Part shown: positions 12,550 through 60,168 of the stretch, piece after piece | Layout: every line of letters begins with the position of its first letter | Numbering within the stretch: position 1 is the stretch's first letter | Origin: Dudresnaya verticillata | Taxonomy: Eukaryota | Length of the DNA stretch: 64,000 nt | Assembly (NCBI GenBank): GCA_977862235.1 | Contig: OZ374560.1 | Span: 1,240,001-1,304,000 of the forward strand | Direction: 5' to 3' | The notes under the pieces: model-generated | Seen by the model: the letters and a program-made list of their open reading frames with translations, nothing else | What the model was told of the DNA's origin: nothing | Database searches by the model: none | Position numbers and translations under genes: made by a program

Positions 12550-12753
12550 TCGATCATCGACATATAATGTGGGCAACCGACCCTGCGGGCGTAGCCCGCG
12601 TGCTGTAGTAGGGGGAGCGTCGTCATGATCAGGACTTATTAAAGTTTGCCTGTTTGATAGTTGGGGTGGCGTGGTGTGTCGCTGTTAGGAGAAGTCCCCT
12701 TATATGGCGTAAAGCGAAGTAACCCACGGGGGTTGTGGTCGGCTAACGACGGG

Positions 12754-13072
12754 AACACTGATTTCAGCCGCTTCAGAATCTACTTTTTCAAACAGAATGG
12801 AAAACGTACCCACTTTATTACTTGTATGTGCAAGGAGAGAGCGAGCTAAGAACAGTGGTGCAATCCGTTTGCTCTCAAGTCAAGCCATTCCATAGTTATG
12901 GCCGTCCGCACACCCATTATATGACCCTTGAAAAGTTTCGAATTACCCCCGAAACTTTCCGAAAATAGTTTCCAGAAATTACCGCACGCCGCCGCGCGCC
13001 CCGCGGGGCCGGAAAGACTTGCCCATAAATGGCACCGGCGCCCCACCAGGCCGCCGCTCAAGTGCCCCATGG
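12754..13072 (+). repeat. Element A left TIR (weaker similarity continues to about 13190)
   Basis: Reverse complement of about 24712-25028. Confidence 0.9.
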
Positions 13073-13461
13073 CAAGCCCCATTCCATGCCCCATGTCGGC
13101 ATTTGCGCCGCGCGCGCCCAGTTTGTGAGTGCAGCACTGTACCCCCTCATCACCCCCGACTGGCACATGCGTCTGTGCCATGCCCCGTTACACCTTTACC
13201 CTTCCTTGGTCGTTGGGCCACCGCGTCATCGTGCGCGCCATCCACCCCACCATGCGCCGAGCACCGAAGACCTCCGCCGCCGCGGCGCGCCTCGCGCCCT
13301 TTCCGCCTTGGGCCGTCTCCATATCGTTCCCGCGGCGCGTCGTTCTCGCGTCCCGTCGTGTTCGCGCCCCTCCGCACCATCACCATCTCGTATCTGCGTC
13401 GCCAGTCGCCTCTATCCCTCATCTCCTCGTTCTTCTCCGCATTGCGCCCTCGTGCACAGCA

Positions 13462-14100
13462 GGTTCCACCGAACGTGTCGAGACCTGAACCTCCCTCAAG
13501 GCAAAAGGTCTGCAACAACTCCCCAATGACAGCCGGGTTCTTCTCTTCGACGAGTACAAGCGATCTCGTGTTTGGTCTCGTCAATTTATCCCTTGGGACT
13601 GGTACGCGTGACACATCAGCGAATCGCCGCTTCTCCGGTGCTTGCAGATCATTGTAGTTGCTTGCTAGGTCTGGTTTATATCCTTTCGGGTGGACGCCTG
13701 GAGCTCCCGCAAAGACTGCAATCTCCGCGGCATTCTGGGGTGCGGTTTGGCCACGGTGTGCCTGCATTGTCGAAGTGTCCTTCATAATCACGTAAGGGTA
13801 AGCGGGGCATTTGAACTGGTACTTCACAAATGCCTCGCGGAATTCCGGGAATAAAAGGAATGACGTAAAGACTACCCATCCACCGGGGATAACAACCGTT
13901 CTTGCGAAAGCCACTAGGGCCTTAATCTCCTCCCCAATCATGAAGTTGTCGTAACTTTCACCAGCCCCAGCCTGAGACTTCTTTGTGCCGTACGGTGGGT
14001 GCGTCAGCAGAATGTCAAACAGTTTGCTCCCTTCCTTGCCCACGGTAGTATCGAACTTCTGCCAACGCATCTGGAAGCACTCCAGTTTCATTTCTTTCAT
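13462..14100 (-). pseudogene. N4-cytosine/N6-adenine DNA methyltransferase domain (beta-class motif order), C-terminally truncated
   Basis: FDILLTHPPYG is motif IV (DPPY with a D>H change). It is followed by PGG.VV, then EKN...GGSGLDTFGGT (motif X/I). Homology to the 62.5-63.3 kb copy stops at about 13462. Confidence 0.8.
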
Positions 14101-15975
14101 ATAGTCTATGTGCTACGTCGCATCGTTGTTATCAGATTGCACACCTTTGGCAGTGTTTAGCGGTTCCGATTACACTGTGGATTCGGACATGACTGCAATG
14201 GCACCGCCAGAATTCTGGGTGTCTTCATCCCCTCTTGCACCTGTCCCGGCTGCGGCTGGATCTTCTCCATGACACGCTTCCTGCGTCGCATTTTTCTCTT
14301 GTGCATCCGATATTAACCCGCCTGATACCGACCGTCCCACTTTTCCAGAAGTCCCATTCGCTGGTAAAGTCGCTGTTTCGGGTTCCTTTGGGGAACCAGC
14401 GGCTCCCTCGACATTGCATTCACCAGGAACAGAATCCTGTTCCATATCACCGGGAGTAGTACCCTGTGCTTTGGGTACTGTCTGGCCTTCATTAGGCTTC
14501 TTTTTGTTTTGAGCTTCTCGGGCAGTGAGAATGACGTGCTCGCGAAACGTTTTTAGTTTGAAAGGGGCTTCTTGAGGGCATGAATCCTTGTACAGTGACA
14601 TGATTGACTTCAGCAGGTCGTGATCGTTACCCCTGTTCATGGTTATCTCCAAATCCAGCTTCGTACTTTTCAACAGGTTCTCGCGAAACGTAATCATAGC
14701 TTGCGGCCATTCCTTCCGTTCCCTGACGAGTTCGAATTTATGGACCTCTCTCATCGCGGCTTTTGTCTTTTCAAATGGTTCTGTTGTGAATCGATGTGGC
14801 ATCGGCTTGAAGCTATGATTCTGTGACAACTCCCGACGCCTGTAGAGTGTTGCTACCTGCGTCTCCACGGCGTTATCCGAAAACCCGGCATTCATAAAAG
14901 CCCTTGATGATCGTAGTGTATATATGCGAGAAAACGTCCGATACACACGGCAACCCATTGCCTGCATCGCGGTTGGCCTATCCATTGCTCTTCCTGACGT
15001 TTTGAAGGCCTGATGGGAGGCTAACTTATGGGAATTCCTCATTCATGATGACACCGACCGCTTGAATCGTCTCCCTGGGTAATCGAAGAAAGCTTCCCGA
15101 AGTCTGCTTTATGGTGTTATCCGTCAGGTGTCTGCAGCCGTCGTATGCTCGCGCAACAGCAACAGCAGTTGGTGTCTTCCCATTGTTTTCAGCAGTAAAT
15201 CGGTCAGTTTCAGCTCTTAGTCCACTGAGCACATCGTAGAATGTAGTTTCTATGTAGAAAGAATAATCTTGCTTGCTGTTTTGATGCCTTGCCAGTTGCC
15301 GGAGGACTTGAACATCGTGACCGCCCTTCAATACTGTTACAGGGAGAGCAAAAGCCTTCCGCCTGTCGTAGTCCTCCTGATTTAGTTCTAATACAACGCC
15401 AACCCTGTGTTGCCCATCCACAACTCCATACCAGTCCGAACGTGACTCATGCAGTTCCTTTACCTGCTCCTCACAAAAGGGAGATCCATCAGGATTCCGT
15501 TTGGATGTAAGGTACTTGTTTACGTATCGACGCAAAGTGCCGGTCAGCTTCACCACTATTGGGGCATCGGACCTTGCCACGAATCCGGAGTTGGAGTGGT
15601 CGGAGTTAGGATTCGGAGCACCGCGGAAGATCAACTTTAACCTCTCCACGCCATACAGCACAATGGGCCGAATTTCAGAAACGGTACGTATGCCTTCCGA
15701 TCAACCCGGCAGTTCACGGACCCTTCCATTACCTCCACAAACAACGCTGCTGCAGCATCTCAAGCGTTCCTGGAGGCAGCAGCATCTTGGGGTACTCCTT
15801 TGCTCTTTCTCCTGCTCCCACCCATTTTGGCAGGTTGACATAGAAGATGTGACTGTCGTGGATTACAAAGCCTTTCCTTCGGATTAGAACTGGAAACGTT
15901 TCCAGGGTATACACGGGGAACAAGACTTTCAAAATAGGCGGGAAACGTGCTGAGGTCTGTTTGGACGTACCGCAT
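14101..15975 (-). pseudogene. ParB/Sulfiredoxin-like (DGQHR) domain + helical middle region + linker, apparently fused to the methyltransferase
   Basis: IRPIVLYGVERLK...WYGVVDGQHRVGVVLEL...LPVTVL...LRQLARHQN. Frameshift near 15030. ORF 14170-15042 is in frame with the MTase across two stop codons. Confidence 0.7.
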
Positions 15976-17371
15976 CCACCGGCGGTGTTGGGATCTGAAA
16001 GCAGATCCGAGACCCTAAGTTCGCTCTGAAGTCAGGATTCTGATCTGATTCCGTTCATAAATTACGGTCACGAACACGGTATCGAAACATGCCGTACAGG
16101 CATTTTCTACTCTGCAGTTCTCCGTGAACAGAATATCGCTCGTGATCACATAACGCCAGGCCATGCAAAATGCCTTCCCTTGGCGTCGGTAGTCAACCTG
16201 TGCAGTCTCTTCGGTGCGCGCGGTGCGCGCGGGTCGCACGGTTCTCCATAGGGGACGGCGGCGCGCGGGTGGGGTCGGGTGGGAGGGTACCTGAACTTAA
16301 CGGCATAGTGAAACCGTACGGTAATACCCAGCGTCGCAAAGTCTCACGGACTTCAGTGCACGGAATACAGTACGCTCCGCGGAGCGGGAGGCTGAGAGCA
16401 GGACGTTCAATTCCCGTTAATCGGTCCTGCAGCGGCACATTTTGTATTGTACAGTCGGTTCCCACGGACCGTTACGGTGGACCGTGGATCCATGGTAGGA
16501 AATCGTTCGTACAGTCGGTACGATACCACCTTCCAATAATGTGCTGGTATCACGCCACACACGCGCGTGTGGCTTGTACCGAAACGTGTTATCGGATAGG
16601 TTTTGAGATTGGTGGCGGTTGATAACTATTGGAGCAATACCAGTATTGCATGAAAGCTTTTCATCCAATCACCAAATCAATATCTGTTTAATTGCAAATG
16701 AGATGCGTCAGCCGAAAAGCTTGATAGATATTATCCAACGGCAATTACACGAGCTTTCAAATAGCTATCACTTCGGGCCACACACCAAAAGCTAAATAGC
16801 TTTTCGCCACCCGCATTTCGCATTGCTTCCAGATAGCTTTCTGTCCGGTGCCGCGGCCGAGAACCATTTGAGCAATACAAGTATTGCTCAATAGCTTTTC
16901 AGATCTCGCACGCTCAATATCTATATCTTGCCCGGGCTCATGCGCCCCCTCCCAGACGCATTGTAGTACACGCCTCGCCACCAACTGCACGCCACCCGTC
17001 CCTCACCCTCGCCGCGTCGACACCCCCTCGTTCTCGCGTCTCAGAGATGCCAACAGTACTGTGTTACGCGGCAGCAAGTCCTCCCGCAACGGCATCAGTA
17101 GCAGCAGCAGTCAGCAGACGCGTCAGGAAGCGGCGCCATGGCGGGTGCACCTGCTCAAGTGCGCCGCGCACCGTTCCCTCATCAGCACCAAGCTCGTACT
17201 ACTCTCTCGCGTCGGTCTTTCAAGGCAGACCCAGCGCCCGCGTGCTTATACTGGTACACCAGACGATATATATACTCTGAAGTGTTCCACAACAGGATTC
17301 TGTTTACTAAGTTCGTACACCGCACAAGCTGTAAAAGATGGTACATACAGGCGTACGCCGTGAGCAGCTCG

Positions 17372-20300
17372 TCATGACATCTGCAGTGATTCCCTTATCT
17401 TCTTCCTAGCCGCGACAGGTATAGTAGCCTTGCTGAGGAACGGGAACTCCACCAGCACCGTGTCGACGGAGATTGTTTCTTTCCACGGTCTGCTGCGCAG
17501 AAAGCAGGGTTTGTACCTTCCCGTCCATGGCCCCTCGTTCGCACGAACCTCGTACCAGTGAACGTACAACCTCGACACGACATTAGTATCGAAGGTTCCG
17601 AGAAAGTCCGTGACCTGCGCTATCCAAAACGGGATGTTTGCCGTGTCTTTCAAGTCCCGGGGATCAGGGCTCAGTGCTACGAAACTGTTCTTCGTGTAGG
17701 TAAGGTCTACAGTAGGATCCGCGGCAGGCATTTCGATACCTTCCCCGTCGACCACCTCGTCCTCTAAAACCCCATCTGCAGCCTTATAGGTCCCGTTAAG
17801 CTCGAAAGCTTCATCCAGATTCCAATGAAATGGCTCCTCCCTGTCCCTGTACACATGATCTCGAAGCTTTTGTAGCGACCTCATCTTCGCAGTGCTATTG
17901 CTGCACGGCTCTTCTGTCCTCAAGCGGTCGTTGACCTCTTTAATATCCGGGGGAGTACGAGCAGGAGTGTCGGGCGTTCTCTTCAAGTCCGGCGCGAACA
18001 GAATGAATCCGACTTGATTGCTGTTCGTATTCAGCGGGACGAACTCATCACTGCAACCAATCTTGACCTGGAAGCCTGTCTTGAATGTCGCATTTGTGAT
18101 GGGCACTCCGACCACTCGGTGGAACTTGAAGAATCGGTAATGCTTGAAAGACTCGATCTTGCCAATGGACTTCTCAGCCTTGCAAAGTCCAGAGAAGTTT
18201 GCTATGTGCAATAGTCGGTTTTTAATGGGCTGGGGGTTGTAGGATTTCGTCAACTCCTCCAACAAATTATCCATAGTGACTGAATCGTTGGCCTTCAGTC
18301 TTACAGATTTGCAGCTGAATGAATCGTTGGCCTTCAGTCTTCCAGATGTGCAGCTGAATACCTGGTCAATGTCTGCGTGCGTGTACCCGATGGGCAAGAA
18401 CGACACATGGACCTCCATGAAGACTCCCCAGGCAACCAAAAATCCACAGTACGACATCAGGAATGTGTTCTTGTTTTCCCGTGAGCAATCGTCGACCTGC
18501 AAGTAGAGTGTCCCCCTCACTCCGCCCTGTCCTTCTTGATCATGAACACTCTGTGGAGAGCTTCTATTATATGGTTGGCCCTGGTTTTGAACTCTGCAGT
18601 CATTGTGTACAAATAGAGCTGCTTGGTCGCTCCATGCTCCAAAACCCCACTAGTTTGGCCTTAATCTCATGACCGGTCGTGCTCTTCATATTAACAGGGA
18701 AATGTGGAAGCCCAAATTCGGACTGGTCCGCTCCATCAATTATAACAGAACAGAATTCTGTCGGATAAAGTGCAGCCATCTCCGTCTTCTTCCTGTACTC
18801 GCACCGCTCCTTCCATGCAATAGCAATATGCTTGCTGCGGCGTGCACGAAGTTCCTCTGTGGCACTCGAATTGGTCCCTGCTTTCGCTAACAAGTCCCGG
18901 ATTTTCTCACATTCTGTACAATTGGTGAACCTGTGCACTTTCCGCGCTTTGATATGACTGCAGTGCTTTTGCCAAACGTCACAAAAGTAGCTTATCACTG
19001 CAGGGATACGATCCGTGTAGAGTTTGCGATGCTCTGCGACATAAATGTCGTAGATAGCCTTCCTTTTGAAGAAAGGAAGGTGCGCCTCCTCACTGTCTGG
19101 CATGCAGTCCGCCGACGCCTCTGCAAGTCGCTCCAGAAAAGTAACAACTATATTACGTTGGTCGGCAGCAACATCCGGTGATCCTCCCTGCACGCAATCC
19201 AGCTTACTGCTTTGCGGTGTTTCCTTCACGCACGCCTGCAAGTCTCGTGAGAATGCAAATACCTCGAGGAGGAAGGCATAGCACACGGCAACGCCGGAGA
19301 AGTAAAACTTGTTCTTGTTTCCTTGCAGTAATGTCTGCAAGTAAGAACTTCCATCCTCTGCATCCATGAGCAGGACGCGTCTCGCCTCCGCCCTAACAAA
19401 TAACGCCTCCATACTAGAGAAGCATTTTCGGGTACAGCACTTCATCCGCTTCACATCTCCGTTCTCCAACTTGCACAAAAGTTTCTTCCTCCGGGTCAGC
19501 AGCAAGCCTTTACCCTTCGCCTTTTCCTGCTACTGCGGTAGGTGTACTTGCGCTTCCCACGGGCATTTCTAGCGGAGTGACCTCCGGAAGGTCTTCCAGG
19601 ATTCTGTTCGACATTATCGACATTGTCATCGGCATCCTGTGCACCTCGATACAAGCCACGATCGCCCTGTTCACCACCTGCATCCGACGGCGGGTCATTC
19701 TTCCCATTCACCTTCCCTATCTTGCGCAAGGAACCCCTTTCAACTTCTTTGCCCGGGTCCACACTCTCGGATGTAGCATAGGAGGGCGTTTCATATTCTG
19801 ATGCAGACTCAGAGTGCGAATGTGACTCGGAGCCGTCTGCAGACACCCTTCGGCTGACCGTGGGATGCTTTCTCTTCGACCCCAAGGGCGCCCTGGCGAC
19901 AGGGGACGTTTATTCCCTGGCCCAGACCGGCCGCTCCTGCTTCGGAAGCGGAATCCGCTAGCAACAATTGTCGCGGCCGTGGGCAACACCGGGCGCGAAG
20001 ATGGCTTTTTGGGGCGGGGCCGCATCTTGGGTCGCTGCTCCGGGGTGTGGACTAGAAGCTGAATGGATCCAACACTGTCCTCCTTGACATCACCATCTGT
20101 CGACACGGGATTTATGGACGCCGAGGACGCTCGCGGCGTTAGACGACTTGGAACGGCGCGCTCAGCACTAGCCTCCGCCCCACGTGGGATACGCCGCTCG
20201 CGCATACTGTGCAAATTCCAGGCGTGGAAACCGCCGGCAAGCTCGTTAAGGCTGTCTGGAACAGTGTCCAGGCTTTTGTAGGTGTATGGATACTTGCGGG

Positions 20301-20553
20301 CGGCATATTCCTTCTCGATTTCAACGTTACGAACAACAGCCAGGAACTGCCCCTTCTTCCCCAGCTTGCAGAGTTCGTGGTTGTGCACCACAACGCAGTA
20401 CTTCCCACTCTTGTCCGCTCTTGAGGGTACCATCGGCTTGAAAATTCTCGCACACCCCACGTTCGTGCCTTTCAAAAAAAGATTTACCATCCCATCCCCA
20501 TCCTCACCGATCACCATGATGTGCGTGTGAGGACCAGCACTAGAGGGGCGCAA
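17372..20553 (-). pseudogene. DDD-type RNase-H-fold transposase-like gene (Sola-like), frameshifted
   Basis: Cys motifs KCCTRKC and CTEC, then SVIIDGADQS, LYLQVDDCSRENKN and FLPIGYTHADIDQVFS. These match the QxDNCxxxNKN...GHTHxDxDxxF transposase-derived family. The ORFs at 19496-20553 may be its N-terminus. A 39-bp in-frame duplication lies at about 18282-18359. Confidence 0.7.
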
Positions 20554-22024
20554 CGAAAGCGCGTATCGGCGCGTTGAGAAGAATGCAGATAAACGGAAAG
20601 GGATTTATCTGTAAAGATTAGGTCCGGTGTGCGACAATGGCGCTGGGACAGCTGCACAGGATGCTGGTTACCAAAATGAACTGGCGCACGGCTCGGAGTC
20701 GCTCAACACCATGTGGTGGCGGTTTATACCGTTCGTGGTTTAGGTGAACCAGGGTTTGGCGAGGGAGGTACTGGTAATGGACTTTCCACCACACATTCGC
20801 GATACAATCACACCAGCGGGCGGTTTGATTGCCCGCAGAATTCTGTTTGGCGCAACCAGAATTCTGAACCGTTCCATCGTTCTCCGATAAGACAGCTCAG
20901 AAGATCCCTTACAGACAACCCGAATACCATCGCTCTCAAATAATTTCGAAGAACAATGAAGAGAGTTCTCGAAGTCCATAGTTCAGGAGATGAAAGTGGG
21001 AAAAGACAGACAGAAGAAGAAAACACTGGGCGGCGTTCAAATGGAAGAGTGTCTGAGCATCCAGACAGAAATTCCGCCCACAAGGTAGACTCCCAGCCTA
21101 CCGTAGATCGTTCAAAAAGTGCTGAGGCAAGTACAGGGAAGACCCCTGCGGACATTCAAACGAACGGAGCGCCAGCAAACACTTTACTCACTCCGCTACA
21201 GCCACCTCCTCGCAATCTCTCGAAAGCTTCACCTTCTCGTAATACGAACGCCAGCGGAGAGAGTGCTATGATGGGGACACGTCAAGAAGTTCTTGGTTCT
21301 AAGAACGCAGCACAGCAAACAGAATTTCACGGTCGAAGCCAACTACTCTCCAGAGGGGCAGTTTTTGCGTTGCTTGCTGTGCTTAGCAGCGAAGTGCCGC
21401 GCAGGAAGAGCAAGCTTGAAGGGACCCCAGTCGGGGTGCCAGACCGTATTGAAATTCCGTACAAACGATCCATTATGAACGAAGTAGCTAGGATGTTAGA
21501 AAGCGAGCAACAGCCGCCACAGATAACGAGGGAGAGGTGAAGAAACATAGTTAGGGTGCAGAACTATAGTTCTGCGGGCATGCTGACTAAGTAACACCGA
21601 AAGCAGGCGATATTGGTTTCGAAGGGAAGCTGCATTCTATACACGACAGCGCACAAGGAGAGATGCCAGTCTCAGAATTTCAGAAACCCAGAAGCATTCT
21701 TCCTTTTAGTGGACCTCTTCAAGTACTCCACCGACCAATAGCGTGTCATGATTTCTGCAGCATGTCGCCGCCATTGCCGCCGCCACCCATGTGCCACCCT
21801 ACCCATGTTCACCATATGATGCATCATATTCGGCGGCATCATCAACACTAGTGTTAAAGCTTTCGGCTTTCTGGACGGAGACGCCGCCGACCCTCATTCT
21901 ATCAACTTCAATAACAACACCTCCAAGATTGGCTCATACGCCAAGTAGTTTATCGTCCTGGCCGCTTTTGCCTTTGACGTCTCGCTCATTCAGGTCCATT
22001 TGATACTCATCTTCATACAGGGTT

Positions 22025-23525
22025 TCTACGCCCGCCTGCGTCGCAAGTTCTTCGAGAGAATCATGTCCCAGGATTATACCTGGGTTGGCCACAACGACGG
22101 TGGTGAGCTCACGGACCGCGTCGCAGGAGATTCCAATCATACTAAGAGCGGCATTGGCGACAAGCTTACTAGCGCCATCCATTGCTTTGCTATGTTCATC
22201 ATCGGTGCCATAATCGCGTTTGTGTATGGTCTGCTGCTCACCCTGGTCATCCTACCGTTGCCCTTCTGCTCATCGGAGGTGATGCAATCTTCTCAAGTTC
22301 GCCACTGTGACAGAGAGTACTGGCGATGGTCTCGGTGCGTATTGTGCCGCTGGCGCCATCGTTAGTGAGGTCATGGGCCTCATTCGTACTATCACCGCCT
22401 ATGGCGGACAGTAAAGCGAAGCGAAACGCTATCAAGCCGACTCGGCTCTCAGATCTCGGAGCTGCACAGTGCGTAAAAGCAGACTCTCGCAAGTCTACAT
22501 TTGCCGTCATTGGCTTTGGCCTGTGGTTTTTCATAATCTTGGTCGACTAATCGCGAGATTCTATGATGTGGAAGAAGGGGCTGTTTAGTTTCATGGGGTG
22601 AACGTGCGAGCTCTGAATGGTCGGTGGCTCCGTGCCCAGATTGGGTATGTAGGTCTAATGCCACGGATGTGAATGTGGATGAGAAGACCAAGAAGACAGT
22701 GCTCACAAGACGTGCAGTGCACCGCGTATGTCGGAGGAAGAGATTGTCAATGCGGCGAGGCAGGCTAACGCGCATGTCGGAGGAAGAGATTGTCAATGCG
22801 GCGAGTCAGGCGAACGCGCATGGCTTCGTCATGAAACTGTCAGAGAAGTAGAATATGATGTTGGGAGAGCTCTCCAGAATTCTGCTTAAGCTGCTTAAGC
22901 TGGCTTCGTGCTTTGCTAGAGTGCATGCACCATGGTGGAAAAAGGCAGAGGGTTTAAATTGAAGAGGGCACCGACCCGCAACTCGAAGATACTGTTCCTT
23001 TACGAGTCGACTGCTGCTCTGGGTGCGCAGTCAGAGAGGGTTGTACAGGACGAAATGGAGAAGGCATCAGCTGGTCTAACTGCGGTAACAATTGCGCACC
23101 GTCTGGGCCTAGTGAGAATTGTGACAATATCTTTGTGAATGATCACGGACGAGTAGTTGAGTCTGGGAGTCACAACGACTTGGTCCGTGTGGAAGACGGG
23201 GCATATCGAACTTTGATAGAACATGAAAATGTGTAAGCTAAGAACGTTGAGGAGATCAACAGCAAAGCTCCTAATGATGGGACGACAGGAAAGGCGGAGG
23301 CTTACGTGTCCAAGAATTCAGTGTTGAAAAGACTGCAAGCACGCGCTATAGATGAGTCTGAAGAAGAAGGGAGAGAACCGGACGTAGATAGTGGGGCTCT
23401 TTTCCGAGCGTTCCGTCTGAACACTACCGAGCTTCCGCTTATTTCTCTAGGCGCTGTGGGTGGTGTGGGTGGCGTAATGACTGCAGCTACACTCCCAGCA
23501 ATGGTCATTGTGTTTTCGAAGGCAA
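22025..23525 (+). pseudogene. Captured, decayed fragments of an ABCB/P-glycoprotein (MDR) transporter
   Basis: ARLRRKFFERIMSQDYTW...GELTDRVAGD...GIGDKL (TMD1), EEIVNAASQANAHGFVMKL, and KILFLYESTAAL..QSERVVQ...TIAHRL (NBD). Many stops and deletions. A 46-bp duplication lies at about 22728-22830. Confidence 0.85.
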
Positions 23526-24102
23526 CGAATGGTAAGACGCTGGAATCAGCGAAACATCAGTGCTCGGAGTCGCAGCACGCGTTGGCGAACCGATTCCTTG
23601 GTCTGCAGCAGCCAGTACACTATGCCATAATGCAGACAGCGAGTAATCATTCTCCCGGAAAAGCTCCTTGGAGTGGGAATACGTTTCAACAACGAGCCTG
23701 CCTCCGACTGCATCTGATTTCAACCATGATGAGCTAGTGTTGTTCTTGACTACCTGGTTCAAGTCACGCGAAAGCTGATAATTCCAAAAGTCATCGACTG
23801 ACGGCGAAGCAGAAACGAAAGGCCCATCACACCATTGCCGTCGCGTGCGTGTGTGCAGTGGCATCCTCGTCTCAGTCATGGCGCATTCCCCGGCGTGGCG
23901 CAGCTCAGAAGACGCGACGCATCGCGTCCGGGCCTTGCGTCGGAGCTGCGCTTGTGCTCCAACGAACCTTCGAGCACTGCAGGGCTACCATAGTCCACTA
24001 AGGGGCATCTCCTCCACAAATACCCCTGCTACCATGATGACTTCTTGAGCGCCACTGCGAGGATTGCGGGTAGTCTATTCTCTGCTCCTTCATCGTTAAC
24101 GC

Positions 24103-24410: not shown

Positions 24411-24711
24411 AAGACGTGTGCAGCGTGCACATGACAATTTGTTAGTGCGGTGCGGGCGCGAGGCGGTGCGGGCACGAGGTGGCGAGGTGGCTAGGGCGCG
24501 ACGTGACTCGAGCACGAGGCGGCGCGCGTGCGAGGTGCCGAGGTGGCGGGACGTTTGGTTGGGTAGAGGGTGCTAAAGGCGACGCGGCGTGGTACGACGG
24601 TGACGGGTCATGCTGAACCGCACTCGCCGGTGAGTTTCAGGTGGTGCAGCACTGCGTGTAGTGGCATGGGTGCTCCCTGAGGAAGCTGCGAAAATGCCCC
24701 ACCCCATACTG

Positions 24712-25028
24712 GCATGGGGCACTTGCGCGGCGGCCTGGTGGGGCGCCGATGCCATTTCTGGGCAAGTCTGTCCGGCCCCGCGGGGCGCGTGGGCGTGCGG
24801 AAATTTATGGGAAAATATTTTCGGAAAGTTTCGGGGGTAATTCGAAACTTTTCAAGGGTCATATAATGGGTGTGCGGATGGCCATAACTTGGGAACGGCT
24901 TGACTTGAGAGCAAACGGATTGCACCACTGTTCTTAGCTCGCTCCCCTCTTGCCAATAAATGTACGAAAGTGGGTACGTTTTCCATTCTGTTTGAAAAGT
25001 AGATTCTGAAGCGGCCGAAATCAGTGTT
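24712..25028 (-). repeat. Element A right TIR
   Basis: Reverse complement of 12754-13072. Confidence 0.9.
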
Positions 25029-26404
25029 CGGGGGCGTATGTCGTCATTGAGGCGTGCGTCGTGTAGTGTGGAGGTCCACATTCCGACAGCGACTTGCATG
25101 TAGATGTGCCCCGGCCGCTTGGCTTTCGAATGCTCAAGGCCGTTGCTGGCTAAGGGCAGTATGTACGGATTTCCGTTTGAGGCATAACGCCCCTATTTCG
25201 ACTTAGTCGCGACCGGCTTGGGGACGAAGTCGAGTAATACTTGCGGTCGTCCGCTAGGGAGGCCCGCTGTATGCGCATGAGGTGCAGGCGATTGGTGCGG
25301 GGTGCGATGGCACCAATATGGCCCAATGGTAAATCGTAACGTGGCCCATGCGACGTGACTCGTACAAGGGTACAGTGGCATCAGTCGTGCACTGTGGTCT
25401 AGCCACATCAATTTTGTACAGCCATCTGTTGCGGGGCGTTGGGTTGTTCATGTCGCATGTATGCGGAACGCTGACGTGGTAGTGCGAGCCCCAGTGGATC
25501 CGCCAACGCCTGAGTCGGAGTCGACGGAGAGGGACGGGCCATCGCCTAGAAGCGGTATTTTCTAACGTTGCTCGAAGCGGAATGACGCGTGCGCGCTATC
25601 GCATGATATCCATGCTTCTTGACATCGATGGTCGTGTTCTCGGACGCCCTAAACATGTGGGATTACACTTGTGCGAACAGTGTGGCGGTAGGTCCCGCGT
25701 GTGTGGAGGGATTCCCTGAACATTGGGGTGCGCGACAGGTCAGCGATTGCTCAAACTAGTGATTACGGAATTCCGTCTTAGTCATAATTGCTTTGGCAGG
25801 ATCGGTCGTAGACGACTTGGAGACGGCAGCAGCGCGCGAGTGCGGTTCGCTGCGGTCTGTGTAGGGGCGTTCCCCCTTATATTTACCAAAAGGGGTGTTG
25901 TGGGGCGTCTTATATGAGAGGGGTCGTGAGCGTTGCGTTGGGGCTGACCTGGATGTCCTGCGATGTGGGATTCCACTTTCTGTACACGACCTGCGCCAAG
26001 GCGTTCCCACCTTATTGGGGAACGGATGCTCTAGGCCATTGGCGGTTCGGGGGAGTCATTACGGAATTCCGTTTTGTGCATGCTTGCCTTTGTTGACTTA
26101 GCCGTGTTCGACTTCGGGAGAGACGAAGGTGATCAAGTGCGGTCGACCGCTAGGGTGAGTGGGTGCGCGTAGGGTGTGTCTGAATGGTGCTGCAATAATT
26201 AATATCGTGCCTGACCAGTGAGATGCTATACCGTGGCGTACAGTACTCCCTTTGTGTGCGCGGCATCTATTGTCGCATCAGCTCCTGGACCCGAGTCTTC
26301 GACGTGGTATGTCCACTTCATTTGCGACTTAGCAGATGTCTGCACGCGTGCTGTTTTGGAGCCTAGTCCACCATGGTCTTTGTAACAGTGGCGGGGACGC
26401 CGAG

Positions 26405-49986: not shown

Positions 49987-51344
49987 TTACTCTTCAGTTA
50001 TTGCCTTCTCCAGATTACCAGCCGTCTTAAGCATTCCGTCCAGAGCCGCTGACTTTGCCGTCTTTGCAAGGAACTCCGCAGCTTTCCCGATATGTCTGGC
50101 CTTCTGCGCGTGAGCCATCTCAGATGCTACTGCCGACGCCTCATCTGGGGGAGCAAACATCTCCATGCCACGCACCGTGATTTCAGACAATGAACGTCCG
50201 TCACGTGCTCGTTTGTTGCGGCGGTATGTTGCGTCGATGCCCCGTAGACCGTTGCTGCCGGTCCCGATTCCCTCCTCTCGACGCGCATCCCCGGGCATCA
50301 GCCTTGTAGCCATCTTTGCAATGACAGACCCATAATCAGTCCCAAGAAAGGTATGCATGTTCATAATTGCTGCACTGCCGCGGGCAAAGTTTGAGAAGTC
50401 CGCTTCGTCATTTTGCCCTGACGCTGTGAAGGTATCCCTAATTATGGTGTAGGAACTCCGCGTTTCCCCAAACCTTGCCGAGAGGAAGGACGACGGGCGT
50501 TTGTGAGGGCAATAGGACGGCAAAACGCCTCACGTCACTTTCTGTGATACCATTACACTGTGATGGCATCTGGTTTAAAAGAATCGTTATTGAATAGTAC
50601 TGCTAAATGTTCCTTCCATGGACACACTGTTTCATGATCCAGCTGGTCGCGGTCTCGAGGCACGGAGAGCAGCTGTCGCGCTGCCGTCATCCGGCTGTCC
50701 GCGATAGTATGTAAAAGGCGGGCTACTTCGCCGGTGCTGAATAGCGCCTGACGGGCCGGCACGGATTTTGCGGCACGAGCACACTGCGGGGCGTATCTAG
50801 CCACATAAATATTTCCAGAAGTCTCGGTGAGCACGGGGGCAGTGGGTCCTGCTGTCCAAGCATATGATGAGACTCCATGTTTCGAAACAACCTTGGACTT
50901 GCACCTGGAAGAGAGCGGTATTCGGTCGAGGATGAAAAACAACGCCTCCTTTGACATCTGTATGCGCGCGTGCGCGGATCGCTGTTCGTCGTTCATCATC
51001 TCAGGAGTAATTTCATTCTCCTCTCCGTCTTCTCCTCTCTCTGTTAACTTCTCTTCCCCACCGCCGCCTGGGCAGCATCTAGCTGCTCCGCCGTAGTTCC
51101 GAACTGAAGGAGTCGTATCGCGACTACTTCTCGCTTCAACGCTAAAGAGAGGTTCTTGACACCTGAAACCCTCACCATGTCGATCGCATACTCCTTGAAG
51201 AAGGCATTGTCCCATACAAAACACAGAGCTTCTTGTATCATATCGGCGACGGCTTTCGGTTCTGCTCGAATTTTGCGACAAAGATCGCCACAAGTGGAAA
51301 CAGTTCTCACTTCCGGCCATCGTGTTGAAAGGAGGGCACAACAT
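49987..51344 (-). pseudogene. Probable second (DNA-binding) ORF of the Harbinger element
   Basis: Long decayed ORFs convergent with the transposase, as typical of Harbinger elements. FSTGEVARLLH is only weakly Myb-like. Confidence 0.45.
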
Positions 51345-51574
51345 TCAATTGATTAAGCAACTGGCCAGACATCAAAACAAGAAACACGACTCCGCGTTCT
51401 ATATAGACGGCATTTTACGATGTGATGAGGGGGCTGAGAGAAGAAGCGGACCAACTGACGGCTGTACATAATTGGAAGGCCCCAACTGCTGTCGATGTCG
51501 CACGAGCGTAAGATGAGTGCAAATACCTCACGGATAGTACTATTAAGCAAACAGCAGGCATGGTACTTCACCTG

Positions 51575-52015
51575 CACACGAGAACAATCGCAGTGCTCGG
51601 GAAGATCATGAACGAGGAGTTACCAGAGATGACCTCGCGTCACCAACTGCACGCTTCCTGGAGTGCTGTGGATAAGATGACTGAAATGCCAGCTGCAGAT
51701 TGTCGAGTCTTCAGGCGTTTCGCACACATATCAACTTTACGGTCATCACGACCGTTCATGAACGCAGGGATTTCCGACGAGGGAGTAGAAATACAGGTTG
51801 CGACTCTGTACCGTCTGCGGGAACTGTCCAGAGCCCATCATTTCAAACTGATGGACACAGGTTTACGACCGAACAATTCGAGAATGCCAGTGCGGCGATG
51901 CGAGAGGTCCGCAAGTTTGAATGTGTCCCGGAGCAAAAGGAAAAGCTACCGTCCCTGAGGGTACTGCGTTCAAATATCCCAAGGAGAACGAAAATGGATG
52001 TTGAGATATCCATAA
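51575..52015 (+). pseudogene. Middle-region fragment of a second ParB-MTase gene copy
   Basis: IMNEELP...CRVFRRFAHISTLRSSRPFMNAGISDEGVEIQVATLYRLRELS aligns with IMNEEFP...CRVYRTFSRIYTLRSSRAFMNAGFSDNAVETQVATLYRRRELS at 14.8-15.1 kb. Confidence 0.85.
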
Positions 52016-52299
52016 GCCACGCAGCGTGCGTTTCGTGGCCACAACTCTTCTAGTTCTAATATGGTTTCAGGAGCGGGGCTCCTCTGTGCTGTCATGCTCT
52101 TGGCATCACAGCAACGAAGAAGGTTACTGTTGATAACCACGCTTTCAAGCCGGGTACAGCACCTTCTGCGCAAGAGATGGAAACGATTAAGGCAACCCAA
52201 AATTGATGAGGTCAGGTCTAGATACGGGGTTTGTTATGGGGTTAGAAAAGCGCCTTATCGCACCGGCCGCAAAACAAACTGCTACGGAAGAATCAGGGG

Positions 52300-52554: not shown

Positions 52555-53237
52555 AATACAGATTTCCGGGTTTTCAGAATCTGTGTTCCGAATCAGTCTG
52601 AAAAAATGTTAATGGAATAAATATTTATATATCGCGTTAGACTGGGGAGAGGGAGCTGAGAAGAATGGTGTAATCTGTTTTGCGATAGCACGCGCGGTTG
52701 CGGAGTTACAGCTTGCCGCATATACGGGTAAATGTCCCCGAAACTTTCGTGAAAGTTTCGAAACTTTCGGAATTTCCGAATTAAAATTTACCCAGAAATT
52801 GCACTGCCGCCTGCTGCCCTCCCGGGCGCGCCTGGCAGCGCACCGACGCTCGTGCTTCAGCACGCTTGGCCCCGCCCGCCGCATCCCCGGCCCGCCCTGA
52901 GCTGTGTTCAAGGGCGCAGTGTCACCCCGCACGACTGGTACTGCTTGGCCGGCAGGGTGAATCTGGAGGGTAAACAATTCATGCGAGGCGCTCGAATACT
53001 CACGTGCTGGTACCAGTACCACCCCTTCCCGCACGTGCGCATCATTCCACTCCGGATCCTGGGCCAGAGCGGCTCACCTCGCGCAACAGCTCCACCTCCA
53101 TCGCGCGTGCCCCGCACCTCCTCTACCGCCATCGCGCGTGCGCCACACCATCTCTACCGTCATCGCGATCTCACATCAAACTGCGCATGAGGTTCGCCAC
53201 GCCTCGCCCCTGCCGCCCTCCCCATCACCTCGCACCC
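52555..53237 (+). repeat. Element B left TIR (about 0.6-0.7 kb, diverged internally)
   Basis: Reverse complement of about 59580-60168. Confidence 0.85.
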
Positions 53238-56039
53238 GTAAGAACAGGCGACTCTTGCATCCACAACACGCCCTGCACTGCGCCCCCAGCCGCGGAGTCT
53301 CGCGCTGCGCATACCGTCGCAGATGAGCCGAACAGCGAGGGAGACCTGTCCCCACCGCCGGGTGGCGCGTCCTCAGCGGATGAGGCCCCCGAAACACAAG
53401 AAGAAGACGACGACCAGATGACGATGGCGATGGACTGCAGAGATTTGTTTCCAATTTTGTTGCGTAGCGCGACTCCATGGTCCAGGTCTGTTCAGACCTG
53501 CACGGGAAGTCCTTAGAAGAGCTGCAGAGTGACTTCTATGCTGCCACTGAATCCACATCCGCGTCGTATACCTTCTTTGCCAACGATGCTCGCTCGTGCG
53601 AACCCCTCCCGCGCGACCTCCCAGACTACGCTATCATTTCCACCCTTAAATTGTAGGATTCCCTGGCAAAGCAGAACTCTGCATCTTGGCTTTTAACATG
53701 ATGGACCGCACTGGTGCTGGCTACGTCATACGGGATGATTTTGTGCGTTACGCCGCGTTTATCTGACCAGTTGCGGATGCCGCGGTTGCAGGGCTTGTGT
53801 TTGATGAGCTTGTGCCATAGCTAGCAGAGTGTGCTGCAGAAGAAGAGGCGCCATTAGACTTGCAGGAATCCAAACAGAAAGGCCCTCACTTTGAGATGGT
53901 TGCGTAACTGGAACTTGCGAGAAGTTAACGAGGAAGCGCAGCCAAGCCGTTGCAGAGGGCTTACATCGACTACGACCTTTTCCATGCATGGTCAGTGCCA
54001 ATAGTGATGCTGCATCACTTGTATGTCAAGATGCGGGCTGTGACATCGACAGCTTTCCCGTTGCTACAATGGTGACTTCTCGGTCAGCAGCCTGGCAGAC
54101 AACGGGGCTCCCCCGTATGACCTTTATCCACCAGCTGTTGCGCTGCGCTATAAGATCTGACGCACATTCTTTCTCGCTGTTCAAGACAACTGCCACTAAC
54201 AAGAAGATGACTGGCTCAACTTACAACAGCGGCTGGGTATCGACCCGGGTGAAAGTCTGGTCAATTAGCAAGATGCGTTGGATCTCAGTGCTTTGTTTCA
54301 TACCTTGGGAAAGCTGTACCTTAGCCAGAGGTATCATATTCTATGTCCAGCTGTTGGCAGGAATCGTTAGTTTGTGAGGTCTGCGGCTGTCGCAGCTGTG
54401 TCCACGACAGACAGAGATATCTTTCATGATGCGTGACTGCTTGATTGCAATACGTCTACTTTCTGAGAGGGAGGTAGCCGTTGATGGGTTATCTGAAGGA
54501 AGAGAACGCGAAAGCTGGCTCAACATATGGAAATGGTCGGCAAGGGCGTAAAGCAGATACCGGGTAAGACCCAACCCTATCGCAACATGTGTGTAAGCTT
54601 ATGCGGCAATTCACATCGAGGCAGAAGCACCATTTGTGCTGCTGTGTTCAAGTCAGAGAGAAGTATAATTGCAACATTTGGGTTCATCTTACGGGGTAAA
54701 TCGTAGCAGCCCACAAACTTCACCTTCATTTGGGCTTTGGTGTCTTGCGTCAACTAATGCCCTCGTTATATCCACAGCAGACTCAAGTGTCTGAGCTTAG
54801 CGCCGGTTCCGATACTGCAGCCGAAACCGACAAGGTTGGTCGAGAAACATCAGAGATTCGCTTGCTTAACTACGCGCGTGACACGGACCCATTTCGGAAC
54901 GAACCATGTCCACCACTTCTGGCAGTCGCGGCACATTCTAATATTGCCCGCTGCCCATCTTTGAGGAGGGTAACAAGGAAACGGGTATGAACTTGCTGCT
55001 CTTCTCGCATGCCGAGCGGTGCGACCAGAAATGAGAGTAAAGAAGAGTTGAGCATAATAATCGTTCGCTTCACTAGTTTCCTACGCCATAGCGCAATATC
55101 GTCAGCCATAATCACATGCTACTCCTCGCAGGAGAGCATGTACTGCCACTGACAGCACTATCCCGGTAGAAGTTCACAGCGCAAAAGATGCATCATCGCT
55201 CGGTCCCATTTCCGCAGCAACTTCTCTTTCACACTGTCGGATCTGCAGAGTTCCATCGAATTGTAGCTCTTGCAGAGCATGGGATGAATGTCCAGCGGCA
55301 TGGAAGATCTGCAAACAAGCATCTAGAGGAATGATGCATCCACGGCCCCGGTAGAGTAGTAGTAGCGAGGCGGGTCGGGTCACAGCACTGTGAGAATATA
55401 GAGAGCTTCGATTTGCAGGTAGGTGCACTCAAGCAATACACTTGCGTCTCATCGCGGGACGAGTGCCCGCAGTTCCGAGATTACTGCAATCGCGTGAAAA
55501 CTTATCCAATATTATGGAGAATGACCAACAGCTTTTCGGAAAGCCGCACGTAAATTTCTATTAAACAGCACATACACTGTACGATATCTGAAAACCTATG
55601 ATAGGTTTTCCGAAACATGAGTGCTCATGTGCTGTTTAATAGCTTTTTGAATCTCACTGGTTGAAAAGCTGTTATAGGTTTTGCGATTGCCTCGGGCCAA
55701 ACACCTTTTTGATAGAAACTACGTTTGCTCGACCCCAGGACCTATTCCATATTATGGAGAATGCAAGATAGATTTTCAGGTCGTGCGGCATAACTCTCCA
55801 GGATTTTTCCACGAGATTTATCGCTGATTCCCTTCTCAGACTTTTCTTTGGGAACACCTGGGTCCCTCCACCCGTCCGGTTGCCGGCCAGCGCCCTCTCA
55901 AACGCAATCGCAACCGAACCGCCGCGTTTCGCTACAACCCCCTCCCGTCCGCCCCCCGCGACTGGCGCCGGTCGCGCACCACCGCACCCCACCGACCCGC
56001 ACAACTACTGTGCTTCCCGTCGCACTGCCGCACCACGCC

Positions 56040-56490
56040 CCCGAAGCTACATTGGGGCCTTTTTATGCGTTGCGTGCAGTCCAGATGGAAAGCATATCGC
56101 CACGAGCGGTGAAGATGGTCTGGTTTCGATCTGGTGCCCTTCAGAGGAGCGGCTGGTTGCGTGGTTAGAGAAGCATACGTCTTGGTTCAGTGCAGTGGCG
56201 TGGGACTCATCTCTAAGTGCACCCGACCGGTATCGCATCGGCAGCGCAGGGCAAGATGCGAAGCGGTTGCTGTGAGATTTTGCGTTGGATGTGTTGTATC
56301 ACATATCTCCGCAATCAAGACTTGGCACTGGTGTGGTAGGGTTGTGTAGCTACGTACGTGATGTGAACAACGCGCCCAGCGCTGCGACCTCCTCTGGCAG
56401 CAGTACGAATGGTCCTGTTGGGAATGGCTCGGCGTCTGGGCAGCGAACAGTGGAGCGCAAGGCGAGCAATCTTTCTCGGCTGCGTGGAAA
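56040..56490 (+). pseudogene. Captured WD40 fragment (WDR20/DMWD/CreC-like)
   Basis: SYIGAFLCVACSPDGKHIATSGEDGLVSIW...HTSWFSAVAWD...YRIGSAGQD..LL*DF. Confidence 0.75.
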
Positions 56491-56491
56491 T

Positions 56492-57492
56492 AGCGAGTTC
56501 TATCAGTGCGACTTTGACATCGCTGACAAATACCCCTCCATGGTCCCGGATGTAGACGTGCTCGTTGTGATGATACAGATGTTCGACAAACTTGCTAGTC
56601 AGGGCAAGTTCCACGCAAAGCTTCTCTAGAGCATCAGGAGCTACAACATCAAGGTCAGCAACATGGTCATCATGGATGTCATCTTCCGTGTGTGTGGCCT
56701 ACCGGACGAAAAGCTTCGGACCATCTGCTCTGCGGTCGACAAGCTTGACAAAGAGAGCTAGGAGAATGTCAAGGAGATGGTTGTGGATAAGGGACTGGAT
56801 GAAGCCGCCGCCGACAAGATCGAAAAGTTTGTTATGATGAACGGCGACCCCTTGGAAATCTTAACGAAGTTGCGCGAACAAGAGGAATTGGCAGAGGTCT
56901 TTGGCGAAGCTCTTGATGTAATGGAGAAGCTTTTTAACTTGGTGGCATTCATGCGCGAGGGGCAACCGCAGTGGCTTTCGTTTGATCTCCCGCTCGCTCG
57001 TGGGCTCGACTAATACAATCGTGTCATTTTCGAGGCGGTCTTGGTCGACAAGAAAACGAGCTTGGGCTCCATTGGCGCTGGGAGTCGCTATGACAATTTG
57101 GTGGGCATGTTTCGTAATCAAGTATACCATGTGTTGGGTGCTCTCTAGGTATTGACAGAATAGTGAATATGGTGGTCCAGGTTGCGCAGAAACAGGCGGC
57201 AGCGGAGTCGGTTGACGGGAAGGGAAAGGTGCGCGACGACGATAGATGTGCTTGTTGTGACGGTCGGAAAAGGAACTATGAAGCCCAGACTGCGGCCTTC
57301 CACAGAAAGCTGGCGCGCCGGGTTTCTATTGAGTTTTGCTTCTATGAGAATGGACAATGGGAAAGCAGGTGACACAGGCCATTACTCAAGGCATTAAACT
57401 CATGGTGATTATCGGAGAGGACGAGATTGCAAAAGGTGTAGCAAAACTTGAAGTGCTGGCGACAAAGGCCGAGCAGACCATCCCAAGGGGAA
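56492..57492 (+). pseudogene. HARS: Captured, decayed cytosolic histidyl-tRNA synthetase fragment (central and C-terminal part)
   Basis: [51 protein letters not shown] and VIIGEDEI. Stops and frameshifts present; N-terminus absent. Confidence 0.88.
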
Positions 57493-59144
57493 TACGGCCC
57501 TGTGTTAGCGCCCTTTTCGAGAGGAGTGATCATCGTTCATGGTCGTCGTCGATGCTCTTTGAATGGACGGCATCCCGAATTGCTGTTCAACGCGAGATTT
57601 GTCTTCTTCGTGGGCCCAGTTCGTTTCTGACTCACCATGTCCGATGTTTGTGGTCAAACAAGATCAGCGATGTTGAACCCACAAGCCAAGCAAGCCCGGA
57701 GGAAGTGCGTTGGTGTGAGATATATGTAAGTTGCAGTATTGACTTGAAGTTGTCGAATTTCTGGTGGACTCACCTTAGTCACCTTAACCTAGGAAAAACA
57801 GTTCAATCACTCTCCAACCCATGCGCTGAGCTATCTTATTTGCTCAGGTCGCGATTGGGTCGGCTTTGCAGGTGTTCGAAGTGTCCACGCTAGGACAGCC
57901 GTATGAAAATATCAAAACAGCAATGGCAGCTCACCGAACAGGTAACCTTAGAGGTTCCTTGCGCCGCTTAGACTCGTCTTGAGGAAGCTCTGCATTTTGG
58001 CAAGGGCTCATGCCGTGGGCCTGCATAGAGGCGGTAACGAAGGGAAGAATGCCTATCTTTGCGCAGCATGAGATAAAGAATCTCAAACAATAGGTGGGGA
58101 TGGGACGTTTGCGTCTAGTGCCATCGGCGGAATGGGTAGTGGCGTGTGCCAAGGCTACTACAAAATGGGGTTCTGTACGTTCATGACGACAGTTCAAGTA
58201 ACAAGAACAAAAGGCGTTGGCGGTGGTCAGAAGAGCTGCATAGCTGTGGCTAGTGACATCTTGCCAAGGGAAGGAATCTTAGGGATTTACAAAGGCGTAC
58301 GCCATTGACGTCAATGCTGTCGCGTTGCGGCAAGCAACGAATTGGGGATCTCACTTTCGGTTCTGCAGAGTTGTTGAGTCCATCATCTACAGGAAGGATG
58401 GCGCCTTTTGATAGTGTCGTAAGGTATCATACTTTTCAATCACTGGCAGACTCACCTCTGGGCTCGTGCAACACAATTCGAGAGAGACTTTTCTCAGCCT
58501 CATTGCACTCTTGCAACTCCCGTGGCGTGTCGGGAAAGCTCCGAGTACGGGAATCTGCAGTTAGATGAACGGAGCACCGGCTTTGGCGAGCAGAGCGAGG
58601 CGGACGCGGTGAGCTTACAAACCTTCGTTCTACAAAACCAGGCGCGGGGTCGCAAAGGAATGGGAAGAAGACGTCACCGTTGATTGCGTACTTGTGGAGT
58701 TCGAGTCGCTCACCAGGAATGGCAGGCTACCAGTTTCTGTACAGAAGAAGTTGCGCGAGTCCCTTCACAAACAGTAGCGCCCGCGGCCATCTGTAGAGCA
58801 AGGAATAGATGTAAGTTTACTGAGTCAGAATGGGAAGTATAGAGTGAAGGTGATTAGGTTAATGTGTTTGAGAGCTGCTATGAAACTGGTTTGTTTTCCT
58901 GTTCGTCCAGGACTACCACTTTCTATACTTGAGCAGAAGTGCTAGGACGCGAAATTGGTACTGTGCGAGTGCTGTGCGTTCCTTGCCTTGCAATGTAAAT
59001 AGCGGGGTTTGTTTGGTCAGCGTTGCAAAAGCGTTTGAGGCAAGGCACACCGGAAGCCATTTGAAGTTAGAGCGGTTGATGTCGTGGTCCAGCACGTGAT
59101 GAAGTTTCAGCACTTCAGCAGTTGGCGTCGACGGAAATGAAAAC

Positions 59145-59345
59145 ACGCGAAATTGTTGTTGCGCAAGTGATTGTTATTTGCCTTGCAATGGCAATACGAG
59201 GGCAATGATAACACACAAAATTGTTGTTGTGCGAGTGATTCTTATTTGCCTTGCATTAGCAACACGGGGGTAATGATAACTCGCGAAATTGTTTTCGTGC
59301 GAGTGGATTGCGTTATTTGGCTTGCAATGGCAATAGCGGGGGGTG
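59145..59345. repeat. 68-bp tandem repeat x3 (a related copy lies at about 58950-59015)
   Basis: AAATTGTT..GTGCGAGTG...TTATTTGCCTTGCA recurs at 59150, 59218 and 59286. Confidence 0.8.
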
Positions 59346-59579
59346 TTTGCGAAGCGATGTAAACGCAATTGACGCAAAGCGCACCGGGAGCCATGCGCAG
59401 GTAGAGCGGTTGGTGTCACTCTGCAGTACCTGATGTAGTTTCAGCACTTGAGCAGGACCTGCTCAATTTTTCCCCAGTCGCACAACACTTACCACCGCGG
59501 CGGGGCATGTCGTAGATGTGAAGTCTACGACTTCACGCGCACTTTGACATGCCTGCGCGGTGCGGTAGAGTAGGTGCGC

Positions 59580-60168
59580 GAGGTGCGCGGCTTGATGGGG
59601 AGGGCGGCAGGGACGGGTGTAGACAGCGGGGTGTGGTGAGCTTGCAGTCTGATATGGCAAGCGAGACGGCGGTAGAGGTGGTGCGGCACAGGCGCCGCAC
59701 TGGACCCGGAGTGGAATGATGGCCACGAGACGGAGGGGTGATACTGGTGAGCCAGGGTAAATCTGGGCCAAGCAGTGCAAGTCGTGTGGGGCGACACTGC
59801 GCCCTTGGTCCCTGCCCAGGGCAGGCCGGGGGTGAGGCGAGCGGGGCCAGACATGCCGGAGCACGGGCGCAGGCGCCCGTGCGCGCCCAGGCGCCACCCC
59901 GAGGGGCTGCAGGGGGCAGCGCAATTTCTGGCTAAATTTTAATCCAGAAATTCCGAAACTTTCCAAACTTTCGCGAAAGTTTCGGGACATTTCACCCCTA
60001 TATGCAGCACGCCATAACTCCGCAACCGTACATGCTATCCCCAAACCGATTCCACCATTATTCTCAGCTCTCTCTTCCCAATCCAACGCGATATAGAAAT
60101 CGTCATTCCACGAACATTTTTTCAGACTGATTCGCGACACAGATTCTGAAAACCCGGAAATCTGTGTT
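59580..60168 (-). repeat. Element B right TIR
   Basis: Reverse complement of 52555-53237. Confidence 0.85.

Follow-up and report, generated by a model that had tools for sequence, protein, structure and literature searches.

Among the described counterparts of the gene studied here, the closest is an accessory gene of Sola1-1_Ec32 from Ectocarpus. According to the accessible part of its source (PMC12477816), this is a 21.5-kb element with AACCG ends, 282-bp repeats and a 4-bp duplication, and its accessory protein of 1104 amino acids, which combines a ParB-like domain with an N4/N6 methyltransferase, is proposed to modify its own element. Red seaweed Plavaka elements carry the accessory genes PAG2 and PAG3, and the available text on these (10.1101/2025.02.11.637652) also proposes a self-modification function. 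There the cargo consists of two genes (methylase with SET; ParB with 2OG), is mobile between transposon superfamilies and has inverted-repeat arrays beside the ParB gene. In phages, ParB-N is found fused with N6_N4_Mtase and in ParB-terminase loci, and ParB-linked methylases of phage origin occur in other algae (PMC4738411, in its accessible part).

We analysed a stretch of 64,000 nucleotides, hereafter the window, which holds a member of this described class of transposon accessory genes. Its carrier, E1, resembles Sola1-1_Ec32, as far as the latter is described, in its giant size and Sola1-like character, ends that begin with AAC (AACCG there, AACAC in E1), imperfect inverted repeats of about 300 bp (282 there, 321 bp in E1), a 4-bp duplication and one protein of roughly 1000-1100 amino acids that joins ParB-like and N4/N6 methyltransferase domains; for the proteins, the likeness is to the published description and not to the sequence. 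Unlike in E1, where the gene lies on the same strand as the transposase and is dead, the gene of Sola1-1_Ec32 lies on the strand opposite the transposase and its family is complete. Like PAG2 and PAG3 in their available description, the window family brings together a PF01555 methylase and a ParB-like domain as transposon cargo, with inverted repeats beside the ParB gene. It differs from the Plavaka cassette in being a single fused gene, with no SET or 2OG Pfam family in the 50 relatives scanned, and E1 differs in its DUF7869 transposase and 4-bp duplication. Since both the fused accessory gene and the self-modification proposal already stand in the accessible part of PMC12477816, the idea is not new. 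Our additions are that serine is absent at motif IV (0/55 relatives), that palindromes cluster upstream of the gene, that 33/55 relatives have an eroded catalytic motif and that the protein shares a beta domain with the transposase region. The features of E1 are as follows.

12750..12753, no strand: left 4-bp target-site duplication of E1, CGGG (flanks compared)
12754..13074, plus strand: left terminal inverted repeat, AACAC end, with CGAAACTTTC-type motifs, 91.6% identical to the right repeat
13075..13458, no strand: GC-rich subterminal sequence; the 3' end of the methylase gene is missing at the 13461 junction (alignments)
13459..14112, minus strand: predicted beta-class amino-methyltransferase, HPPY (from DPPY), cut after motif I (family HMM iE 2e-72)
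14113..14535, minus strand: low-complexity linker with stops at 14172 and 14115, disordered in the modelled relative P0154
14536..15253, minus strand: all-helical region, its start weakly HTH-like (TetR-type HTH Z 5.1-5.2, weak), frameshift near 15030
15254..15825, minus strand: predicted ParB/Srx-fold domain with R...DGQHR...QN (iE 3e-37), broken by a stop at 15762 and a frameshift near 15682
14172 and 14115, minus strand: copy 1 lesions, stops (alignment to intact relatives)
near 15030, minus strand: copy 1 lesion, frameshift (same alignment)
near 15682, minus strand: copy 1 lesion, frameshift (same alignment)
15762, minus strand: copy 1 lesion, stop TGA (same alignment)
16632..16897, no strand: candidate binding sites upstream of the methylase gene, namely clustered palindromes with nine DAGCWAT half-sites
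17372..19529, minus strand: broken DUF7869 (Sola1-like) transposase in two frames (PF25273 E 1e-32)
20191..20517, minus strand: small beta domain, a homologue of the one at the C-terminus of intact ParB-methylases (iE 5e-16)
21949..23737, plus strand: captured, decayed ABC-transporter gene fragment (PF00664 E 1.5e-17 on 21949-22362)
24710..25028, minus strand: right terminal inverted repeat of E1 (repeat comparison)
25029..25032, no strand: right 4-bp target-site duplication of E1, CGGG (flanks compared)

E1 measures 12,275 bp (12754-25028), with 321-bp inverted repeats and AACAC ends, and the ParB–methylase gene lies just inside one end, on the same strand as the transposase; the ABC fragment, whose relatives are 47-67% identical, lies on the other. 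The transposase belongs to DUF7869, which we take to be the Sola1 transposase, and in its catalytic region we observed an in-frame 39-bp tandem duplication at 18277-18359. The ends of E1 and of a second element in the window, E2, have the features given for Sola1-1_Ec32 in the available description: 4-bp duplications (CGGG, GTTT), long repeats (321-bp, ~400-bp) and AAC ends. The end pattern occurs at four places in the window only, namely the ends of E1 and E2. The first-pass annotation had placed the gene in a eukaryotic transposon, a view borne out by the inverted repeats, target duplication and DUF7869 transposase around it. E1 is itself nested between the LTRs of a Gypsy element (9910-10708 and 34080-34864, 92.5% identical), and the sequence around its insertion site holds no long reading frame. 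Gypsy gag, RT and integrase remnants lie on the minus strand at 26000-33200, within the same LTR pair. The host is a eukaryote, and intronless genes, a GC content near 53% and the published elements of red algae suggest that it is a red seaweed.

The first copy of the gene (copy 1) follows a minus-strand path from 15825 to 13459. The earlier span, 13462..15975, stands on its 3' side and overshoots on its 5' side, where homology begins near 15830 and the ATG is at 15825. With the reading frames checked, the motifs named earlier all lie on the minus strand in the claimed order: VVDGQHR, LPVTVL and LARHQN within ORF 15700-15026, then the helical part and low-complexity linker in ORF 15042-14170, then HPPY followed by LDTFGGT in ORF 14112-13459. 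Against intact relatives, three stops and two frameshifts could be mapped on this path, which had been read as a single broken one. Motif IV has gone from DPPY to HPPY, and we count the H as a lesion because the second copy in the window (copy 2) has DP-PY across a frameshift. The 3' end is deleted at 13461, just after motif I, and intact relatives can be aligned as far as 13462; lost with it are the last part of the methyltransferase and the C-terminal domain of the family. Stops, frameshifts, HPPY and truncation agree with the earlier verdict that this copy is inactive. A complete, catalytically intact methyltransferase domain is absent in copy 1 and present in its closest relatives.

Intact relatives of about 1000 amino acids align along the whole path of copy 1 far beyond chance (P0159 E 1e-152, P0177 E 6e-152). 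Its own four pieces gave zero Pfam matches in a profile search, and the methylase piece gave a single weak PHROG match (methyltransferase phrog_67, E 9e-4). A phmmer search of the PDB with a window piece gave nothing useful, and a fold from the single sequence of a window piece was uninformative (pLDDT 31). The domain calls for copy 1 rest on intact relatives, not on window pieces alone.

These relatives were collected by phmmer with a 218-aa methylase piece among 1.84 billion representative proteins (E<=0.001), which gave 179 matches, the best 150 of which were analysed further. Among these best 150 of 179 matches, 56 are at least 640 aa long; the ParB-like piece is also matched in 50/56 and the helical/linker piece in 55/56. 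The fusion is therefore the family's normal form, and it is kept in intact relatives as had been proposed; an arrangement of intact copies as separate genes did not appear. PF01555 is matched by 48 of the 50 relatives scanned, 41 of them above the curated cut-off. The closest intact members, aligned along the whole path, are P0154 (999 aa), P0159 (1003 aa) and P0177-P0179, all intronless and motif-complete. Relatives stem from assembled metagenomes or sequencing runs, where their contigs measure from a few kb to ~12 kb, and their protein clusters include many partial forms, as would be expected of decaying repeats. When longer proteins were searched for the methylase piece by word index, 0/975 candidates proved to match; the index-free search did find the family. 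Scans for further loci, of limited sensitivity, gave one locus (L001) from 168 pattern matches in metagenome_contigs, 0/56 in genome_contigs and, in viral_contigs, 0/18 and 0/80 for the gene and 0/6 for the transposase. This only outside locus is 1 kb long and comes without gene context, and copy 2 comes without ends, so the transposon link is seen directly for copy 1 alone. One candidate member, P0070, was dropped as a spurious repeat protein.

The fold of the family was examined in P0154, whose AlphaFold2 model (64-row alignment, pLDDT 80) has an alpha/beta domain at about 30-190, a helical region at 200-434, a disordered linker, the methylase at 555-815, a second linker and a small beta domain at 906-997. 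In a structural search of 48,161 chains the modelled methylase matched CcrM best (Z 24.0, rmsd 3.1, 228 aligned), followed among solved structures by M.BceJIV (Z 23.1), M.MboIIA (22.1) and M1.HpyAVI (21.9); the 4mC enzymes PvuII (Z 19.8) and rotifer N4CMT (Z 19.7) rank lower. Profile and Foldseek searches concur. The four leading enzymes share with the family the fold, motif IV before motif I and DPPY, but are 16-20% identical to it and have no ParB fusion. The beta order of motifs noticed earlier is seen both in the window and in the circularly permuted Rossmann fold of the model, and by order, profile and predicted fold the methylase domain classes as a beta-class DNA amino-methyltransferase (PF01555).

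The modelled N-terminal domain, by the same kind of comparison, has a ParB/Srx fold. Residues 30-192 of P0154 match PadC (Z 9.7, rmsd 2.4, 97 aligned), pNOB8 ParB-N (Z 8.6, a match that extends into the helical region), KorB (8.0) and sulfiredoxin (7.7), and share with them the R / DGxHR / N positions as well as the fold; Z-scores of 7.7-9.7 are modest and do not separate the roles of CTP clamp, Srx-type enzyme and nuclease. The likeness of residues 197-252 to TetR-type HTHs does not rise above background (Z 5.1-5.2). Both domains named in the first-pass annotation were matched in intact relatives, the amino-methyltransferase by profile and fold, ParB/Srx by fold and by weak profile matches. 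The DndB profile PF14072 scores no higher than 19.6 bits, short of its curated cut-off of 29.1; no DGQHR-family model is among the NCBIfam matches of 11 members; phrog_1033 matches the ParB-like part weakly; and no ParA partner was seen. The nearest Atlas clusters to P0154 residues 20-435 include fungal DUF3723 (0.94; 160-161 shared features), hinting, as a lead only, that DUF3723 is a ParB-fold relative; a literature search found no paper linking the two.

The spacer between transposase and methylase gene holds candidate binding sites. It contains seven palindromes with arms of at least 7 bp against 0.4 expected (0/300 shuffles), including two copies of GCAATAC-NN-GTATTGC, which has no other match in the window, and nine of the 45 DAGCWAT sites of the window lie within 16632-16897, although the total of 45 does not exceed chance; both patterns were read off the same data on which they are scored. 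As a control we counted, in 300-bp windows, all 6-mers made up of three or more kinds of base with no more than four G/C: the densest eligible cluster is that of the spacer, with eight copies, and the next other motif reaches five. DAGCWAT has no site in L001 and none in the inverted repeats. Of a different kind is CGAAACTTTC, which has 13 of its 18 matches clustered in the repeats of E1 and E2 and is more likely a transposase site.

The small beta domain at the C-terminus of the ParB-methylases is found in 22/55 family members. Its homologue at 20517-20191 is matched by 13/55 members at ~30% identity and, judging from its position, is probably the transposase N-terminus. The domain has no Pfam, Atlas or PDB match; we presume that it resembles the DUF8039/CACTA TnpA barrel. 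In P0007, P0008 and P0020 the tail is swapped, a Cys/His zinc-binding module at the C-terminus replacing the beta domain; that of P0020 matches Znf_SCAND3 weakly (E 0.026).

Our preferred reading, to which we give about even weight, is that the window gene is a dead accessory gene of a 12.3-kb Sola1-like cut-and-paste transposon, and that intact relatives would likely mark the DNA of their own element with 6mA. In this scheme the helical, HTH-like region would bind the palindromic half-site cluster at 16632-16897, between transposase and methylase gene. The ParB domain would bind a nucleotide (CTP in ParB clamps) that gates dimer closure or sliding; the nucleotide-binding positions R, DGxHR/GxxR and N are present in copy 1 and in 7/7 intact rows of its clade. 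Beta-class methyltransferases act as dimers, and dimerisation would pair two such domains to mark the element locally. The 6mA mark would then keep promoters and ends of the element open against host silencing, and the beta domain common to enzyme and transposase region may couple the two. Copy 1 itself performs none of these steps. Chlamydomonas regions that carry 6mA appear to resist 5mC (10.64898/2026.10.09.758095, in its available part). The window shows no CpG depletion (o/e 1.03) and hence no clear sign of a 5mC system that the mark would counter. If the preferred reading is true, a transposon that marks its own DNA would counter silencing by a route different from those of VANDAL proteins or TET enzymes. 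A literature search, largely without subscription papers and Repbase Reports, returned no functional test of this design, and the intact relatives, the confident model and the candidate sites make the published self-marking guess directly testable.

With so many relatives that keep long frames but have eroded active sites, one may ask what a dead enzyme does. One answer, which we consider unlikely, is that the protein chiefly serves its element as a DNA-binding scaffold or as a regulator of transcription (TnpA- or VANC-like), acting through its ParB/helical part, with methyl transfer secondary or dispensable. From 214 family proteins we took the 69 with both domains nearly whole and dropped 14 near-duplicates at 70% identity, leaving 55. 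Both catalytic motifs (motif IV and DGxHR) are intact in 16/55 and eroded in 27/55, and one or the other is eroded in 6+6, while motif I is kept in 42/55. DPP[YFW] is lost in 33/55 relatives that nevertheless stay long open frames, which suggests that catalysis is dispensable in much of the family. In the ParB-like part the box-I R is found in 54/55, the box-III N in 46/55 and an intact DGxHR in 22/55; the DGQHR pointed out earlier is indeed present in copy 1, although the family's typical motif is mostly DG[MA]HR. For a quick, unrooted LG+G4 tree we masked both motifs; grouping all 33 rows whose motif IV is eroded into a single clade is rejected (AU p 3e-7), so erosion probably recurred in more than one lineage, as a scaffold role would allow. 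Against such a role, motif calls in divergent rows may be misaligned, and copies 1 and 2 are sisters within a nine-row clade (SH-aLRT 99) whose other seven rows keep DPPY and DG[MQ]HR in 7/7. The two motifs are strongly associated in their loss when rows are simply counted (Fisher p 7e-5). The association loses significance once independent pairs are compared (5 and 7 pairs; median p 1 and 0.5), so we make no claim of co-evolution.

Self-marking and the eroded rows could also be joined in one bolder account, which we think unlikely: a repurposed ParB clamp would load at the parS-like palindromes, slide under nucleotide control, spread 6mA and dock the transposase through the shared beta domain, and lineages would then repeatedly have turned it into a catalytically dead reader or partner, METTL14-style.

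The same anatomy that suits self-marking would suit a mark that restrains the element, with methylated ends or a methylated promoter limiting or timing transposition, as Dam limits transposition of IS10 and IS50. Autoregulation would place binding sites upstream of the gene itself, which is where the candidate sites are, and the beta domain is common to enzyme and transposase region; the inverted repeats are free of DAGCWAT sites, however, and we judge this reading quite unlikely.

DPPY does not strictly exclude 4mC, and PF01555 spans both marks. An active 4mC writer, or one with host rather than element targets, would fit the PvuII and rotifer N4CMT matches (Z 19.8 and 19.7), the several viral fold matches annotated as N4-cytosine enzymes, and the AGCT core of the clustered half-sites, which we take to be a PvuII-like palindrome. 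We nonetheless hold it improbable: adenine enzymes take the first four places among solved matches (Z 21.9-24.0), and SPPY occurs in 0/55 relatives, whose motif IV opens with D in 34 cases, with E in 10 and with H in 1, but never with S or N. SPPY is the motif of most N4C enzymes (PMC8885841, in its accessible part), and by this rule the lack of S favours 6mA, without proving it. Judged from these motifs, 6mA rather than 4mC is thus the favoured product of the intact relatives.

The case for a gene of use to its transposon draws also on copy 2, whose halves lie on either side of E2.

51232..52017, plus strand: copy 2, ParB C-half and helical region, decayed (alignment to family)
52555..60168, no strand: E2, a related element with homologous inverted repeats and a GTTT duplication, between the halves of copy 2
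62513..63290, plus strand: copy 2, methyltransferase including the C-terminal part missing from copy 1, decayed (alignment to family)

Copy 2 is diverged, lies 36 kb from copy 1 and has lost its 5' end; no transposon ends for an element around it were found in the window. The two copies share 58% protein identity over 426 aligned codons, with pS saturated at 0.80 and pN at 0.24, so the gene was under purifying selection before its death; both are dead remnants of it. This saturated synonymous and low non-synonymous divergence speaks against a passive cargo of phage or giant-virus origin without use to the transposon. So do the depth of the family (55 members, each pair below 70% identity) and the same pairing with a Sola1 element in Ectocarpus, as far as that element is described. 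E1 and E2 do carry captured fragments (ABC, WD40, tRNA-synthetase). In a viral structure library, a phage ParB/Srx-methylase fusion and pandoravirus enzymes lead the matches to the relative, and the phage fusion (BFVD A0A6J5MMM5) has the same two folds in the same order. Yet that fold match has ~13% identity, the best phage sequences are just 23-25% identical over the methylase (six records), and the window family has parts of its own, namely a linker, a long helical insertion and, at the C-terminus, a beta or zinc-binding module. Unlike the phage ParB-terminase loci in their available description, the window gene sits in a eukaryotic transposon without a terminase. Passive cargo is accordingly very improbable. 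Bacterial or phage contamination, or an assembly chimera, might be suspected from an intronless gene with bacterial-type domains, but is next to impossible for a gene inside inverted repeats and a target duplication, nested between Gypsy LTRs, with a second diverged copy 36 kb away and no relatives in genome_contigs or viral_contigs in scans of limited sensitivity.

Several other features lie around the two copies. E2 has a transposase remnant at 58616-58768 and no intact transposase; its captured fragments, WD40 (55772-56272) and tRNA-synthetase anticodon-binding (57348-57890), are of Pack type. A Harbinger-type transposase (DDE_Tnp_4, E 5e-14) lies at 48375-51344, and a second ORF, tail-to-tail with it, abuts the truncated 5' end of copy 2. 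A remnant at 52300-52550 and 60170-60800, split by E2 inside the linker of copy 2, looks by eye like a Harbinger/ISL2EU-like transposase; it gave no profile match and no ends. GC content is near 53% in the window and lower (42-47%) in two blocks at 38244-40178 and 44400-48040, which hold several ORFs of 150-250 aa without a Pfam family and are possibly cargo of another large element. Diverged repeats (73-75%) at 8632-9259, 36488-36648 and 41602-41935 are possibly LTR remnants of a second family, and a chromodomain ORF lies at 6254-6754.
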